A stretch of DNA of 64,000 nt from Escherichia coli. GTDB taxonomy: Bacteria > Pseudomonadota > Gammaproteobacteria > Enterobacterales > Enterobacteriaceae. This document shows positions 17,404 through 26,591 of this stretch, in pieces. The position numbers were made by a program, and so were the translations under genes. The notes under the pieces are model-generated. The model was given only the letters and a program-made list of their open reading frames with translations. It searched no databases and was not told the origin of the DNA. Position 1 is the stretch's first letter, and each line of letters begins with the position of its first letter. The stretch lies in the NCBI RefSeq assembly GCF_046105845.1, contig NZ_CP151004.1; one strand, given 5' to 3'.

Positions 17404-18306
<903 letters not shown>

Positions 18307-19176
18307 TTACCGCTTTCTCGAGTGTGCTTTCTGGTTGTCAAACCAGTGAAAATAACTGATCACGCCTTCGGCAATCGCTGTGGCGATTTTCTGGCGAAAT
18401 GCCGCCGTGCCTAACAGCCGCTCTTCTTCCGGATTGGTGATAAACGAGGTTTCCACCAGCACCGAAGGAACCGACGGCGATTTCAACACCACAAACGCGG
18501 CTTGTTCGGTGTTGCGGCTGTGCAGTTTATGCACCGGCTTAATCTTTTTCAGAATATGCGAGCCAAGCGTCAGGCTGTTTTTAATAGTATCGGTTTGCAC
18601 CAGATCAAACAGCACTTGCTGCAATAGGTGATCCTTGTCAGTCGCCTTTTTACCAGCAACTTCATCGGCGCGGTTTTCGCGTTCAGACAGGTATTTCGCC
18701 ATTGCGCTACTTGCACCGCGGTTAGAGAGGGCAAATACCGAAGCACCGGCAGCTTTCGGGTTGGTAAAGCCGTCGGCATGAATTGACATAAACAGATCTG
18801 CGCCATGTTTATGGGCGATTTCAACGCGATCGTAAAGTGGGATAAACGTATCGCCAGAACGCGTTAAACGCGCATCAATGCCATGATTACGCAAAATGGA
18901 ACGGACGTTTTTAGCAATCGCCAGCACCACATGTTTTTCTTTCGAACCGTTGCGTCCGATCGCTCCGGTATCAATCCCTCCGTGGCCTGGATCGAGAACA
19001 ACGACACGTTTGCCGCCAGATTTTTTTGCTTTCGGCTTGCTGTGTCCGTTGCTGGTTTTTAAAGGTTCTTCTTTGGCGATGGCTTGCGACATTCCTGACA
19101 ACGTCAGCGCTGCAAGTCCTGCTTTCAGCACCTGGCGGCGCGAAGTGAGTGTTTTTAGTGGTTTAAAAGTGCTCAT
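18307..19176 (-). CDS. amiA: N-acetylmuramoyl-L-alanine amidase AmiA (Tat-exported)
   Basis: 289 aa; N-terminal twin-arginine signal TSRRQVLKAGLAALTLSG; directly upstream of hemF. Confidence 0.94.
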   Translation of the reverse strand: MSTFKPLKTLTSRRQVLKAGLAALTLSGMSQAIAKEEPLKTSNGHSKPKAKKSGGKRVVVLDPGHGGIDTGAIGRNGSKEKHVVLAIAKNVRSILRNHGIDARLTRSGDTFIPLYDRVEIAHKHGADLFMSIHADGFTNPKAAGASVFALSNRGASSAMAKYLSERENRADEVAGKKATDKDHLLQQVLFDLVQTDTIKNSLTLGSHILKKIKPVHKLHSRNTEQAAFVVLKSPSVPSVLVETSFITNPEEERLLGTAAFRQKIATAIAEGVISYFHWFDNQKAHSRKR

Positions 19177-19389
19177 ACGGCCTGAGTTGTAATAATAAAG
19201 TTCCAGATGTTATATCGTATCGCGTAATCCGTTACGACCGTTTGCTGTTGAGAATTGTTTTACTTTTCATTTCAATAGTTGACAACTCCCCATTATGCCA
19301 CTTTTTCAACCGATTTTCGTCAGATATTGGCTAATTCGACCGTTCACGCCATAATCAGCCTTTTAACCCGCAAAAAGGTAACGAATACC

Positions 19390-19815
19390 ATGGAGATACG
19401 CGTATTTCGCCAGGAAGATTTCGAAGAGGTCATCACCCTTTGGGAGCGTTGCGACTTGCTGCGTCCGTGGAACGATCCGGAAATGGACATCGAGCGTAAG
19501 ATGAACCATGACGTCAGTTTGTTTCTGGTCGCTGAGGTAAACGGTGAAGTGGTCGGCACGGTGATGGGCGGTTATGACGGGCATCGCGGGTCTGCTTATT
19601 ATCTTGGCGTGCATCCAGAGTTTCGTGGGCGTGGGATTGCCAATGCGTTGCTTAATCGGTTGGAGAAAAAGCTGATTGCTCGCGGCTGCCCGAAAATTCA
19701 GATCAACGTGCCGGAAGATAACGACATGGTGCTCGGAATGTATGAACGCCTGGGATATGAACACGCCGACGTGCTGAGTTTGGGTAAGCGTTTGATTGAA
19801 GATGAAGAGTACTGA
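19390..19815 (+). CDS. ypeA: GNAT-family N-acetyltransferase YpeA
   Basis: 141 aa [24 protein letters not shown]..; ORF-track N-terminal extension (19279) rejected. Confidence 0.9.
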
Positions 19816-20251
19816 GTTTCATCCTGTCCATTATGATGCGCACGGTCGCCTGCGTTTACCCTTGCTCTTCTGGCTTGTGCTATTGCTTCAGGCGCGAACC
19901 TGGGTGCTGTTTGTCATTGCCGGTGCGTCGCGCGAGCAGGGTACTGCACTGCTAAATCTGTTTTATCCCGATCACGATAATTTCTGGCTGGGGTTGATTC
20001 CCGGCATTCCGGCGGTGCTGGCGTTTTTGCTGAGTGGTCGGCGGGCTTCATTTCCCCGTATCTGGCATGTGCTCTATTTTCTGTTGCTGTTGGCGCAAGT
20101 GGTTTTACTTTGCTGGCAACCGTGGCTGTGGCTGAACGGTGAATCCGTTAGCGGTATCGGTCTGTCGCTGGTAGTGGCGGATATTGTGGCGTTAATCTGG
20201 CTGCTGACCAATCGACGTTTACGCGCTTGTTTTAATGAAGAAAAAGAATAA
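19802..20251 (+). CDS. yfeZ: Inner-membrane protein YfeZ
   Basis: 149 aa hydrophobic protein [30 protein letters not shown]..; overlaps ypeA 3' end by 14 nt. Confidence 0.88.
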
Positions 20252-20311
20252 CGGCACTTTTTGGTGAATTTGCACTCCAAGCAACGTTATTGAATAACCA
20301 AAGGAAGTGAC

Positions 20312-20887
20312 ATGAAATCGCTGCGTTTAATGTTATGCGCTATGCCGCTGATGCTGACCGGCTGTTCCACGATGTCGTCAGTTAACTGGTCTGCCGCTAA
20401 CCCGTGGAACTGGTTTGGGTCGTCCACCAAAGTGAGCGAGCAGGGCGTTGGTGAATTAACGGCGTCCACACCACTGCAAGAACAACCCATTGCCGATGCG
20501 CTTGATGGCGATTATCGCCTGCGCAGCGGAATGAAAACCGCGAACGGCAACGTGGTGCGCTTTTTTGAAGTGATGAAAGGCGACAACGTGGCGATGGTGA
20601 TTAACGGCGATCAGGGTACGATCAGCCGCATTGATGTGCTGGATAGCGATATTCCTGCTGACACCGGTGTTAAAATCGGTACACCGTTTAGCGACCTTTA
20701 CAGCAAAGCATTTGGCAATTGCCAAAAAGCTGATGGTGATGATAATCGTGCCGTCGAATGTAAAGCCGAAGGCAGTCAACATATTAGCTACCAGTTCAGC
20801 GGGGAATGGAGTGGTCCTGAAGGGTTAATGCCTTCGGACGATACCCTGAAAAACTGGAAAGTCAGTAAAATTATCTGGCGGCGTTAA
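20312..20887 (+). CDS. yfeY: Lipoprotein YfeY
   Basis: 191 aa; signal peptide with lipobox LTGC; aaggaag SD. Confidence 0.9.
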   Translation: MKSLRLMLCAMPLMLTGCSTMSSVNWSAANPWNWFGSSTKVSEQGVGELTASTPLQEQPIADALDGDYRLRSGMKTANGNVVRFFEVMKGDNVAMVINGDQGTISRIDVLDSDIPADTGVKIGTPFSDLYSKAFGNCQKADGDDNRAVECKAEGSQHISYQFSGEWSGPEGLMPSDDTLKNWKVSKIIWRR

Positions 20888-20898
20888 TTTGCGTCTGA

Positions 20899-21882
<984 letters not shown>

Positions 21883-21906
21883 GCGTTTCTGATTCGATGA
21901 TGAAAG

Positions 21907-21938
21907 GCCAGCCAGTAACATTACTGACTGGCTTTTTT
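21907..21938. terminator. Bidirectional rho-independent terminator between yfeX (+) and yfeW (-)
   Basis: gccagccagtaa..ttactgactggc hairpin flanked by A-rich and tttttt runs. Confidence 0.75.
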
Positions 21939-21939
21939 A

Positions 21940-23241
21940 TTACTGCTTTAACGCCGCATACACCTGATCAACCACCCAACCATAAGTTGCAATCGGTAGC
22001 TGACCGCTTTCGAACATATTGGGATTTTTTTGTGGATCGGCAACTGGCGAATGTGGCTTGTTGCTTAACATCACAATCGCCATATGATTCACCGGATCGA
22101 TAACGGTCACCGTCCCGGTCCAGCCAGTGTGACCGTAGGTTTGCGGGCTTGCCAGCGTGCCAAACGTCGGTGTCATGGTGGCATTACCATTCACGCGCCA
22201 GCCGAGGCCAAAAGTGGCATCTTCCTTAGAGCTGGTGGTGAACATCTTCACCGTTTCTGCATTGAACAGCTGCACATCACCATAGCCACCGCCGTTCAGC
22301 ATCGTTTGCATTAACACCGCAATATCGCCGGTATTGGAAAACAAACCTGCGTGCCCGGAAACGCCGCCCATCGAATAAAAGGCTTTTTCATCGTGCACCT
22401 GACCCCAGAGAGTGGAGGTGCGGATATTCGGGAAATGGATCACGCCATCGCGGGTATTGCCGTTGAGTTCCGTGGCGGCAATTTGTTGCGGTTTAAAGCC
22501 TTTCAGTAGCGGATTAAACACCGTATGCGTCAGGCCGAGCGGGCGATAAATCGACTCTTCAACATAGCGGTCAAGTGGCTGACCGGTAACCGACTCGACG
22601 ATAAATCCAAGCAGCATATAATCGACATCGCTGTAGATATGCTTGCTGCCGGGCTGATACTCCAGCGGCGTGCGCTTGATCATCTCCAGCGTCTGGCCTT
22701 TATCCTGGGAATATAACGCGCCCGCGACCGCTTTATTCGGATATTGTGGGTCCGCCGGGAAACCGCCGCTGTGATGCAGCAGGTCAGAAATCCGCAGCGT
22801 GTTTTTGCCTTTGATGGTGTCATTTGGACTATCGGCAAATCCCGGAATATATTTCGCAATCCGATCGTCAGGATGCAGCTTGCCTTCGCTCATTAGCTTT
22901 TGCAGAGCAAAGTTAGTGGCGTACATCTTGGTATTGGAAGCCAGGTCATACAGCGTCCCGGTGGTGGCTTTGACAGGCTGTTCCATCAATACGCTGCCAT
23001 CGTACTTTTTCGCCGCTCCCCAGGCTTTGCGATACACAATCTGATTATCTTTTATAATCAGCAGGTTTACGCCGGGATAACCGGCGTCCACTTGCTGGCT
23101 AATCCAGCGATCCATCTGGTTAAGCCGTTCGACGTTGAACCCTGCTTTCTCTGGCGAACTTTCTGTCAGTACAGGGTATTTTGCGGCGCTGACGCTACAA
23201 CTAACAGCCAGCAGAGAAAGATAGAGCATTGTCCGTTTCAT
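21940..23241 (-). CDS. yfeW: Penicillin-binding protein 4B (beta-lactamase-fold DD-peptidase) YfeW
   Basis: 433 aa MKRTMLYLSLLAVSCSVSAA.. with signal peptide; ORF-track N-terminal extension rejected. Confidence 0.92.
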   Translation of the reverse strand: MKRTMLYLSLLAVSCSVSAAKYPVLTESSPEKAGFNVERLNQMDRWISQQVDAGYPGVNLLIIKDNQIVYRKAWGAAKKYDGSVLMEQPVKATTGTLYDLASNTKMYATNFALQKLMSEGKLHPDDRIAKYIPGFADSPNDTIKGKNTLRISDLLHHSGGFPADPQYPNKAVAGALYSQDKGQTLEMIKRTPLEYQPGSKHIYSDVDYMLLGFIVESVTGQPLDRYVEESIYRPLGLTHTVFNPLLKGFKPQQIAATELNGNTRDGVIHFPNIRTSTLWGQVHDEKAFYSMGGVSGHAGLFSNTGDIAVLMQTMLNGGGYGDVQLFNAETVKMFTTSSKEDATFGLGWRVNGNATMTPTFGTLASPQTYGHTGWTGTVTVIDPVNHMAIVMLSNKPHSPVADPQKNPNMFESGQLPIATYGWVVDQVYAALKQ

Positions 23242-23245
23242 GATA

Positions 23246-24670
<1,425 letters not shown>

Positions 24671-24673
24671 GGG

Positions 24674-25570
24674 TTATTCCTTGTCTAAAACCTGACGAAT
24701 AAAGCCGCCGTGTTGATCCAGGCGTTTTTTAGCTTCTGCGGCATCGAGATTTTTCAGCACCATCACAATGGCCGTTTTACAGTTGCGCTCGCAGGCAACC
24801 AATGCCGCTTCCGCTTGCTCTGCGCTACATCCGGTAGCGTTTTTGACGATATTGACCTGGCGCACATGCAGTTTTTCGTTGGTGGCGACCACATCGACCA
24901 TCAGGTTGCCGAACACTTTGCCGGATTTAATCATCAGCCCGGTGGAAAGCATATTGAGCACCAGTTTCTGCGCCGTGCCTGCTTTCATTCGCGAAGAACC
25001 GGTGACTACTTCGGCACCTACAATCGGTGTAATGGCAAACTCTGCGGTGGTTGAAACGGCGCTCCCCGGATTACAGGAAATTCCCACTGTGCGGCAGCCG
25101 AGCTGGCGCGCGTATTCCAGTCCGGCAATCACATACGGCGTACGACCGCTGGCGGCAATACCGACCACCACATCCTGCGCGGTTAAGCCGATATTTTTCA
25201 GATCATTAATACCACCTTCCCGGCTATCTTCCGCGCCTTCCACCGCGTGCTGAATGGCATATTCGCCGCCAGCAATCAAACCAACCACCAGACCCGGTTT
25301 CACGCCGTAGGTCGGCGGGCATTCGCTGGCATCCAGAATCCCCAGACGACCTGATGTTCCCGCACCGAGATAAATCAGACGCCCACCGCCGCTTACCTGG
25401 GCGTGGATAACATCGATCGCCGCGGCGATATCCGGCAGTACGCGCTCAACGGCAAGCGGCACGGTTTTATCTTCATCGTTGATAATCCGGCACATTTCCA
25501 GCGTCGATACGCGGTCAATTTCAGCCGAGGCGGCGTTCGAGCCTTCAGTAATCATCTTTTCAAGTTGCAT
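24674..25570 (-). CDS. murQ: N-acetylmuramic acid 6-phosphate etherase MurQ (SIS domain)
   Basis: 298 aa; murQ stop 3 nt upstream of murP start. Confidence 0.94.
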
Positions 25571-25733
25571 CGGTGGTGACCTTACTATTTACGATCAAAT
25601 AATTGCAGATGTATGGAATCATATATCCCGAATTGACAGACTTAAAGGAATCATTGAGTCTACACTCGCAGAGTGTGAAGAGCGTCATAAGAACTTAAGC
25701 GGAATTTTTGCTGCCAGCCCAGGAGAGTGGAAG
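25571..25733. promoter_or_regulatory. murQ-murR divergent promoter/operator region
   Basis: 163-bp AT-rich interval between divergently transcribed murQP and murR; by established biology carries MurR operators and a CRP site; individual sites not resolved. Confidence 0.4.
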
Positions 25734-26591
25734 ATGTTGTACCTGACGAAAATACGCAATGCGGAAAGTGAATTTACCGGGAACGAGCAAAAAATTGCTG
25801 ACTTTCTGCGGGCCAACGTGAGTGAGCTGAAATCTGTCTCTTCGCGCAAGATGGCGAAACAGCTCGGCATCAGTCAGTCGAGTATTGTGAAGTTTGCTCA
25901 GAAGCTCGGCGCTCAAGGATTTACTGAATTGCGTATGGCGTTAATTGGCGAATACAGTGCCAGCCGGGAGAAAACGAATGCCACGGCGCTGCACCTGCAC
26001 AGTTCGATTACCAGTGATGATTCGCTGGAAGTGATTGCCCGCAAACTGAATCGCGAAAAAGAGCTGGCGCTGGAGCAAACCTGCGCGTTGTTCGACTACG
26101 CGCGGCTGCAAAAAATCATTGAGGTCATCAGTAAAGCGCCATTTATCCAGATAACGGGCCTGGGCGGGTCGGCGTTGGTGGGGCGCGATCTTTCATTCAA
26201 ACTGATGAAAATTGGTTATCGTGTGGCCTGTGAAGCTGACACGCATGTACAAGCCACCGTTTCCCAGGCGCTAAAAAAAGGCGATGTACAAATCGCTATC
26301 TCTTACAGCGGCAGTAAAAAAGAGATTGTCTTGTGCGCCGAGGCAGCACGAAAGCAGGGGGCAACGGTGATTGCCATTACCTCGTTAACCGATTCCCCGC
26401 TGCGGCGGCTGGCGCATTACACCCTCGATACCGTTTCTGGCGAAACCGAATGGCGTAGCTCGTCGATGTCCACCCGCACGGCGCAAAATTCTGTTACCGA
26501 TTTACTGTTTGTTGGCCTTGTGCAACTCAATGATGTGGAGTCATTGAAAATGATTGAGCGCAGCAGTGAGCTAACACAACGCCTGAAATGA
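25734..26591 (+). CDS. murR: RpiR-family repressor MurR (HTH + SIS domain)
   Basis: 285 aa [14 protein letters not shown]..; ggagag SD; ORF-track start 25479 would overlap murQ and is rejected. Confidence 0.92.

Follow-up and report, generated by a model that had tools for sequence, protein, structure and literature searches.

The N-acetylmuramic acid divergon of Escherichia coli and the probable relationship of its product PBP4B to the amidase AmiE

Two described systems for the use of N-acetylmuramic acid (MurNAc) are closest to the locus considered here, which lies at positions 18307-26591 of a 64-kb stretch of Escherichia coli DNA (64,000 nucleotides, referred to below as the window) and includes murR, murQ, murP and yfeW, the last of these encoding penicillin-binding protein 4B (PBP4B; the gene is also called pbp4b). 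One system is the MurNAc divergon of E. coli K-12, which is said to have been described earlier in Dahl 2004, Jaeger 2005 and Jaeger & Mayer 2008; the last is also reportedly the source after which the scheme of an operon with one promoter and one terminator was drawn. The other is the recycling operon of Bacillus subtilis, reportedly described in Litzinger 2010, Borisova 2016 and Mueller 2021. According to the published work on E. coli, MurP both takes up and phosphorylates MurNAc, and MurQ turns the resulting MurNAc-6-phosphate (MurNAc-6-P) into N-acetylglucosamine-6-phosphate (GlcNAc-6-P) as well as D-lactate. The operon of murQ comprises MurQ, MurP and PBP4B and is drawn facing murR, with promoter Pq, PR and a single terminator (Borisova et al. 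2016, PMC5061867). According to Zhang et al. 2022 (PMC9177960), MurR represses both this operon and its own gene, and MurNAc-6-P releases MurR; that study, together with PMC3141248, places the MurR operators and control by CAP in the murQ-murR intergenic region. Control of the operon by CRP and MurR is cited in PMC3141248.

In B. subtilis, a protein of the Pfam family PF00144, AmiE, belongs to the murR regulon (PMC10653849). AmiE is a secreted exo-muramoyl-L-alanine amidase; acting together with NagZ and NamZ, it sets free MurNAc, GlcNAc and peptides. Only for the Bacillus protein has cleavage of the MurNAc-L-Ala bond been proven (PMC8054146, PMC5061867).

The region from 21907 to 26591 of the window is the known E. 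coli MurNAc divergon, in which murR faces the three-gene operon murQ-murP-pbp4b (yfeW). The interpretation of these three genes as an operon is already published, so their linkage is not new, and the initial annotation, made from the sequence before the present analysis, had rightly called the cluster known. PBP4B itself has figured as one of E. coli's redundant DD-carboxypeptidases, where it makes no measurable contribution, and its role has been unclear for twenty years. The comparisons below suggest that PBP4B is the enterobacterial counterpart of AmiE. We hold the explanation as a whole, i.e., the known divergon with PBP4B as an AmiE orthologue that would free MurNAc, to be likely.

PBP4B and AmiE

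PBP4B aligns with AmiE of B. subtilis (P0093, which has the NCBI name [quoted passage not shown]) over 402 amino acids without a single gap, with 55% identity and 75% similarity (E = 1e-177). A database search with PBP4B returns, besides the enterobacterial PBP4B proteins, hundreds of proteins from Bacillota at 52-62% identity. The NCBIfam model for PBP4B (NF002968, cut-off 385 bits) gives AmiE 770 bits, the next-best models for AmiE being LipE and AmpH at about 60 bits; E. coli PBP4B scores 893 bits on the same model, 62 bits on the AmpH model (cut-off 266) and 41 bits on that for class C beta-lactamase. Between E. coli and the Bacillaceae, PBP4B is more similar (57-61% identity) than MurQ (50-53%) or MurP (38-39%).

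In an alignment of 13 sequences of the family, which range from 39 to 81% identity, three motifs are invariant: S102-N-T-K105 (SxxK), Y203-S-D205 and H371-T-G373. The middle motif, Y-S-D, has Asp at the position where the (S/Y)xN motif of DD-peptidases has Asn. A sequence search of the PDB found no close structure for PBP4B, the best match being Staphylococcus aureus Flp (4gdn), with E = 7e-24 over half of the protein. The N-terminus of PBP4B, MKRTMLYLSLLAVSCSVSAAK, does not align with mature AmiE and resembles a signal sequence; PBP4B is presumed to be exported to the periplasm.

These comparisons argue strongly that PBP4B is a full-length orthologue of AmiE, and we consider this very probable. 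That amidase is also the physiological activity of PBP4B in E. coli is put forward with less assurance, at somewhat better than an even chance, and the label "DD-peptidase" is probably a misnomer. If PBP4B is the counterpart of AmiE, the position of its gene in a MurNAc operon would be explained. No mention of the relatedness of AmiE and PBP4B was found in the literature searched, which excluded Litzinger 2010 and Vega & Ayala 2006.

There is also a conflict of annotation in this family. NF002968, named "penicillin binding protein PBP4B", takes in AmiE, a proven MurNAc-L-Ala amidase, and therefore hundreds of AmiE orthologues in Bacillota carry the name PBP4B.

The operon and its control signals

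Genes were identified from the table of open reading frames (ORFs), from NCBIfam equivalog models and from what RefSeq annotates in the E. coli locus that matches best, at 98.2% identity (Table 1). The initial annotation had named five genes of cell-wall turnover, amiA, yfeW, murP, murQ and murR, and all five are intact where it had placed them; their proteins fit the NCBIfam models end to end, far above the curated cut-offs. The four divergon orthologues (MurQ, the EIIBC permease MurP, PBP4B and MurR) pass the equivalog cut-offs over their full length, and the order and orientation of their genes are those of the RefSeq annotation.

Table 1. Features of the locus, with positions in the window
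Feature	Position	Strand	Basis or remark
hemF	17404-18303	-	3 nt after amiA
amiA, periplasmic N-acetylmuramoyl-L-alanine amidase	18307-19176	-	NCBIfam NF007652, 580 bits vs cut-off 400
ypeA, GNAT acetyltransferase	19390-19815	+	ORF, RefSeq, NCBIfam
yfeZ, DUF2919	19802-20251	+	ORF, RefSeq, NCBIfam
yfeY, RpoE-regulated lipoprotein	20312-20887	+	ORF, RefSeq, NCBIfam
yfeX, Dyp-type peroxidase	20983-21882	+	ORF, RefSeq, NCBIfam
Hairpin, likely bidirectional terminator	21907-21932		between convergent yfeX and yfeW
pbp4b (yfeW), 433 aa, PF00144 serine hydrolase	21940-23241	-	NF002968, 893 bits vs cut-off 385, profile 1-432 of 432
murP/yfeW junction, 4 nt, TGA-tatc-ATG	23242-23245	-	sequence; same gap annotated in locus L001
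murP, MurNAc-specific phosphotransferase system EIIBC permease	23246-24670	-	NF007152, 941 bits vs cut-off 516
murQ/murP junction, 3 nt, TAA-ccc-ATG	24671-24673	-	sequence
murQ, MurNAc-6-P etherase, first operon gene	24674-25570	-	TIGR00274, 512 bits vs cut-off 302
Divergent control region, 163 nt	25571-25733		between murQ and murR
murR, RpiR-family repressor sensing MurNAc-6-P, divergent	25734-26591	+	NF012026, 639 bits vs cut-off 408; function PMC9177960

The three genes murQ, murP and yfeW lie on one strand, and the spacers of 3 and 4 nt that had been reported between them can be read directly from the sequence. The mechanical ORF of yfeW reaches another 87 nt upstream and so overlaps murP, but the family model already matches at the first residue of the protein as annotated, and therefore the 4-nt spacer is the true one. 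The murP gene has a good Shine-Dalgarno sequence, AAGGAA, within the last codons of murQ, and that of yfeW is weak (GGA only).

The sole sigma-70-like site of the unit on the minus strand, TTCACA-18-AATGAT (25679..25650), is in the murQ-murR intergenic region, and the promoter scan found no promoter-like site on this strand inside murQ or murP. The same intergenic region contains a sequence resembling the CRP consensus, TGTGA-N6-TCATA, at 25674-25689, and two copies of GGAATCAT (25615-25622 and 25647-25654), which are 32 nt apart and have no other occurrence in the window. A search of this region for inverted repeats with a seed of 6 found nothing, so the MurR operators cannot be placed by symmetry, and the octamer GGAATCAT is left as the candidate: its two copies are candidate half-sites of a MurR operator.

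At the other end of the operon, 7 nt 3' of the yfeW stop codon, there is a G+C-rich hairpin of 11 bp, for which RNA folding gives -18.5 kcal/mol (z = -4.6). On the side of yfeX its tail is a run of T6, on that of yfeW a weaker CUUUC, and the hairpin is likely a bidirectional terminator common to the convergent genes yfeX and yfeW.

The proposal that murQ, murP and yfeW form a single transcript agrees with their publication as one operon, and the junctions, promoter scan and terminal hairpin are in keeping with it. The mRNAs of murQ, murP and pbp4B are all increased in a murR deletion (Zhang et al. 2022, PMC9177960), and yfeW, murR, murP and murQ have one common pattern in an RNA-seq time course (PMC8813938). 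The check suggested in the initial annotation is thus already in print, and these published data do not show for yfeW the independent expression pattern which the initial annotation had named as evidence against its proposal. An internal promoter for yfeW was considered and was rejected in view of the scan of the minus strand together with the rise of pbp4B mRNA in the murR deletion. The murQ-murP-yfeW operon and its regulation as described here are, in our view, almost certain.

The arrangement is the usual one for E. coli: the 8.3-kb stretch was matched in 5425 of 5426 complete RefSeq E. coli genomes, the comparison set for all population counts given here. The best match is 98.2% identical and none is identical throughout; the stretch would therefore belong to a lineage absent from this set, or to a near relative such as Shigella. 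The base composition of the unit (G+C 0.51-0.58, similar to the flanks) carries no signature of horizontal transfer, and an Rfam scan of 17-28 kb of the window gave zero RNA families. In strain WCHEC040047 (L002 3807-4976, 6198-6656), three copies of IS200C have inserted into the short intergenic regions flanking yfeX, two before yfeX and one between yfeX and pbp4b (corresponding to about 20900-20980 and 21885-21935 of the window). A match split in the same way is seen in several other top-matching genomes.

Conservation and loss of pbp4b

Gene context was surveyed in 63 loci by tblastn with proteins of E. coli and of Metabacillus, with Pfam checks, counting neighbours within 8 kb. Of 13 full-length enterobacterial loci, 10, from six genera, have murP directly upstream of pbp4b. 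The B. subtilis contigs have, in this order, murQ (SIS domain), murR (HTH_6+SIS), murP (EIIB-EIIC), the gene for P0093, nagZ of glycoside hydrolase family 3 (GH3) and namZ. Four other loci of Bacillaceae (L020, L024, L030, L031) have the order murQ-murR-murP-mupG-X-nagZ-namZ, where X is a homologue 57-61% identical to PBP4B, and in two further loci (L036, L044) a PBP4B/AmiE homologue precedes nagZ-namZ. More distant homologues (again X) occur in Anaerococcus (L040, murR-X-mupG-murQ-murP), in Erysipelotrichaceae (L042, murP-murQ-X-mupG-murR) and in Brevibacillus (L056, namZ-X-...-nagZ). The same partners thus surround PBP4B/AmiE homologues in changing order, which is a signature of functional linkage.

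Some of the enterobacterial loci have features without an E. coli counterpart. In Salmonella arizonae, Citrobacter, Enterobacter chuandaensis and Pluralibacter (L007 3949-5650; L010 4838-6550; L008, L013), a porin-like gene of 361 aa and a DUF2057 gene are found between murR and murQ/murP; their presence in the locus may be a hint that a substrate from outside is taken up through the outer membrane. Three loci (L009, L010, L014) have no detectable murQ beside murP.

Among the E. coli genomes, murQ-murP is present in 5425 of 5426, murR in 4378 and pbp4b in 4152. A contiguous deletion junction was found in 1272 genomes, which matches the 1274 without pbp4b and indicates one common deletion allele, carried by about 23%. 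In ATCC 11303 and FDAARGOS_144 (L066 4092-4178; L067 3998-4084), from which the junction was read, the deletion (1.18 kb) spans approximately 21976-23157, leaving about 84 nt of the beginning and 36 nt of the end of the gene as well as the terminator hairpin, with murQ-murP intact. Carriers include Nissle 1917, a strain of sequence type 95 (ST95) and E. coli B ATCC 11303. There is therefore no obligatory linkage of yfeW to murQP: pbp4b has been deleted, and murQP kept, in 23% of the complete E. coli genomes.

The absence of murR (1048 of 5426 genomes) is combined with the loss of pbp4b in most pbp4b-deleted genomes. In FDAARGOS_144, only the last 25 nt or so of murR are left (window 25661-26570 affected; L066 6505-6785). 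The control region has lost its distal half as well, and with it the CRP-like site, which has been replaced. With murR gone, murQP in such strains should escape repression by MurR.

Two side observations concern the individual genes. Compared with 2928 E. coli genomes, the murR of the window reaches only 90-95% identity, the surrounding 8 kb being 96-98% identical, which looks like two old allele classes or a patch of recombination at the locus. Outside E. coli, pbp4b of Escherichia albertii (L064, between murP and yfeX) matches only part of residues 1-228, and in Leclercia adecarboxylata (L061) and Citrobacter sp. (L032) the gene is split into two frames; these apparently truncated or frame-broken copies suggest repeated independent decay.

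Function, alternatives and related systems

The mechanism we favour would be as follows. PBP4B, exported by means of its signal-like N-terminal sequence, would strip the peptide from MurNAc-peptides in the periplasm and so yield free MurNAc, the substrate of MurP. The logic of the operon could then be summarised as "liberate, import, cleave", performed by PBP4B, MurP and MurQ, respectively. The scissile amide of MurNAc-L-Ala has a D-configured acyl side (D-lactyl), as has that of D-Ala-D-Ala. For this reason, amidase chemistry is plausible for an enzyme of family S12, and a DD-carboxypeptidase side activity would also be explained: the reported weak DD-carboxypeptidase activity and penicillin binding may be by-products of the S12/PF00144 fold. 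The operon of E. coli would be a trimmed version of the Bacillota cluster murQ-murR-murP-(mupG)-amiE-nagZ-namZ.

Several points weigh against the explanation as a whole, above all against an amidase role for PBP4B in MurNAc scavenging. AmiE of B. subtilis needs MurNAc at the non-reducing end, which is made by extracellular NagZ. The NagZ of E. coli is cytoplasmic. With no periplasmic NagZ, the MurNAc-ended peptides would have to be exogenous; muramyl peptides of other gut bacteria or digestion by host lysozyme could be their sources. The loss of pbp4b from genomes that kept murQP means that pbp4b is not needed for MurNAc catabolism itself; its dispensability is consistent with an accessory role in liberating substrate, and also with no important role at all. 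Many homologues in Bacillaceae (e.g. L016, L019, L021, L022) are without a mur neighbour in the 8 kb examined, and three enterobacterial copies of about 74% identity (L011, L012, L015; from Kluyvera, a Citrobacter species and S. diarizonae) are in other contexts, one of which places the gene behind those for an efflux pump and an O-methyltransferase. As far as the literature searched shows, amidase activity is recorded for E. coli PBP4B nowhere, and the evidence for the three-gene transcript consists of secondary citations and quantitative reverse-transcription PCR. The synthesis of PBP4B, given in PMC4916385 as approximately 20-30 molecules per generation in rich medium, is very low, which the weak Shine-Dalgarno sequence of yfeW fits.

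PMC4916385, citing Vega & Ayala 2006, supplies a further point of this kind: it puts PBP4B among the class C PBPs, as DD-carboxypeptidases or DD-endopeptidases. PBP4B might accordingly be a genuine DD-carboxypeptidase, co-expressed with murQP for the trimming of pentapeptides while cell-wall sugars are scavenged, and it does retain SxxK and HTG, the motifs usually found in serine enzymes that recognise penicillin, with weak matches to the AmpH and class C beta-lactamase models. However, its kinship to proven DD-peptidases is remote (62 bits for AmpH as against 893 for its own family), the orthologue that has been characterised, at 55% identity, is an amidase and not a DD-peptidase, and the middle motif is Y-S-D rather than YxN/SxN. 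Moreover, the multi-mutant study itself (PMC4916385) attributes to PBP4B little or no share in pentapeptide trimming, and there is no functional reason tying DD-carboxypeptidation to the uptake of MurNAc. We regard a genuine DD-carboxypeptidase as unlikely. The initial annotation had proposed that the operon couples MurNAc uptake and catabolism to a periplasmic DD-peptidase; the linkage within the operon stands, but the name of the enzyme is doubtful, since its closest characterised relative by far is the amidase AmiE.

Two other explanations concern the extent of the unit. According to one, the 8-kb stretch would be a functional supercluster of cell-wall turnover, with amiA held by selection near murR and murQP-yfeW. 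AmiA also cuts the MurNAc-L-Ala bond, its gene is 2.76 kb from yfeW, and Escherichia species, Salmonella arizonae and two Citrobacter species have kept the neighbourhood from hemF to murR. These are, among the loci recovered with PBP4B, the only ones in which the order hemF-amiA-ypeA-yfeZ-yfeY-yfeX-pbp4b-murP-murQ-murR is whole, and in such close relatives its conservation amounts to ordinary synteny. The murP-pbp4b loci of Pluralibacter (L010), Enterobacter chuandaensis (L013) and Lelliottia (L014) have no homologue of AmiA, HemF or YfeX within 8 kb, and an amidase of the AmiA type is beside a mur cluster in no Bacillota locus examined. Furthermore, by a rough estimate, there is a chance of about 10% that one of some tens of murein genes (of about 4300 genes in total) would lie within five genes of the operon. 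Between amiA and yfeW there are four unrelated genes of the opposite strand, and a gap of 3 nt joins amiA to hemF, neither of which the initial annotation had mentioned; the proposed cluster is therefore one real unit, murR/murQ-murP-yfeW (4.65 kb), plus a separate amiA-hemF pair. A supercluster is very improbable, and amiA was rejected as part of the unit, being in a separate transcription unit with hemF whose link to the operon is not conserved. According to the other explanation, yfeW would be an independently expressed passenger downstream of murP, unrelated to MurNAc. The deletion of pbp4b in 23% of E. coli genomes, the orphan copies in Kluyvera, Citrobacter and Salmonella diarizonae and the weak Shine-Dalgarno sequence would fit a passenger, but the 4-nt gap, the lack of a promoter-like site upstream on the yfeW strand and the recurrence of homologues beside murQ, murP, mupG, nagZ and namZ in bacteria of distant phyla, with varied gene orders, do not. 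As MurR-dependent induction of yfeW has already been reported (PMC9177960), the idea of a passenger is largely refuted, and hardly any credence is left to it.

The reading of PBP4B as an AmiE-type protein, to which we return, can be extended to a fuller scenario, for which we see about even chances: PBP4B would be a misnamed periplasmic amidase of the AmiE type acting on exogenous MurNAc-peptides, the operon would be a pared-down, probably horizontally exchanged Bacillota cluster, and an ancient deletion would have produced lineages which use free MurNAc constitutively but not MurNAc-peptides. The locus itself is textbook-level knowledge, and the interpretation of PBP4B as AmiE is a modest, directly testable lead. 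If it is true, the list of E. coli DD-carboxypeptidases loses one member, the "substrate-liberating" step in the periplasm that the MurNAc pathway has lacked is supplied, and the natural deletions of pbp4b and murR (Nissle 1917, ST95, E. coli B ATCC 11303) are ready-made test strains.

Compared with the described systems, the window has the same genes as the MurNAc divergon of E. coli K-12 (murR b2427, murP b2429), in the same order and orientation, with the same junctions and the same flanks, yfeX on one side and ucpA on the other; its DNA is 96-98% identical to that of E. coli genomes, without structural difference. With AmpH and AmpC of E. coli (class C PBPs/S12), PBP4B has in common the family PF00144 and the motifs SxxK and H/K-T-G, but it is only remotely related to AmpH and class C beta-lactamase and differs in its middle motif, YSD. 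The operon murQ-murR-murP-amiE-nagZ-namZ of B. subtilis differs from that of E. coli in that it includes genes for secreted NagZ and NamZ, and in that murR is internal in B. subtilis and divergent in E. coli; the Bacillus enzyme acts on the Gram-positive wall, whereas that of E. coli would be in the periplasm. Common to both are MurQ, MurP, a regulator of the MurR type and a PF00144 enzyme encoded right after murP.

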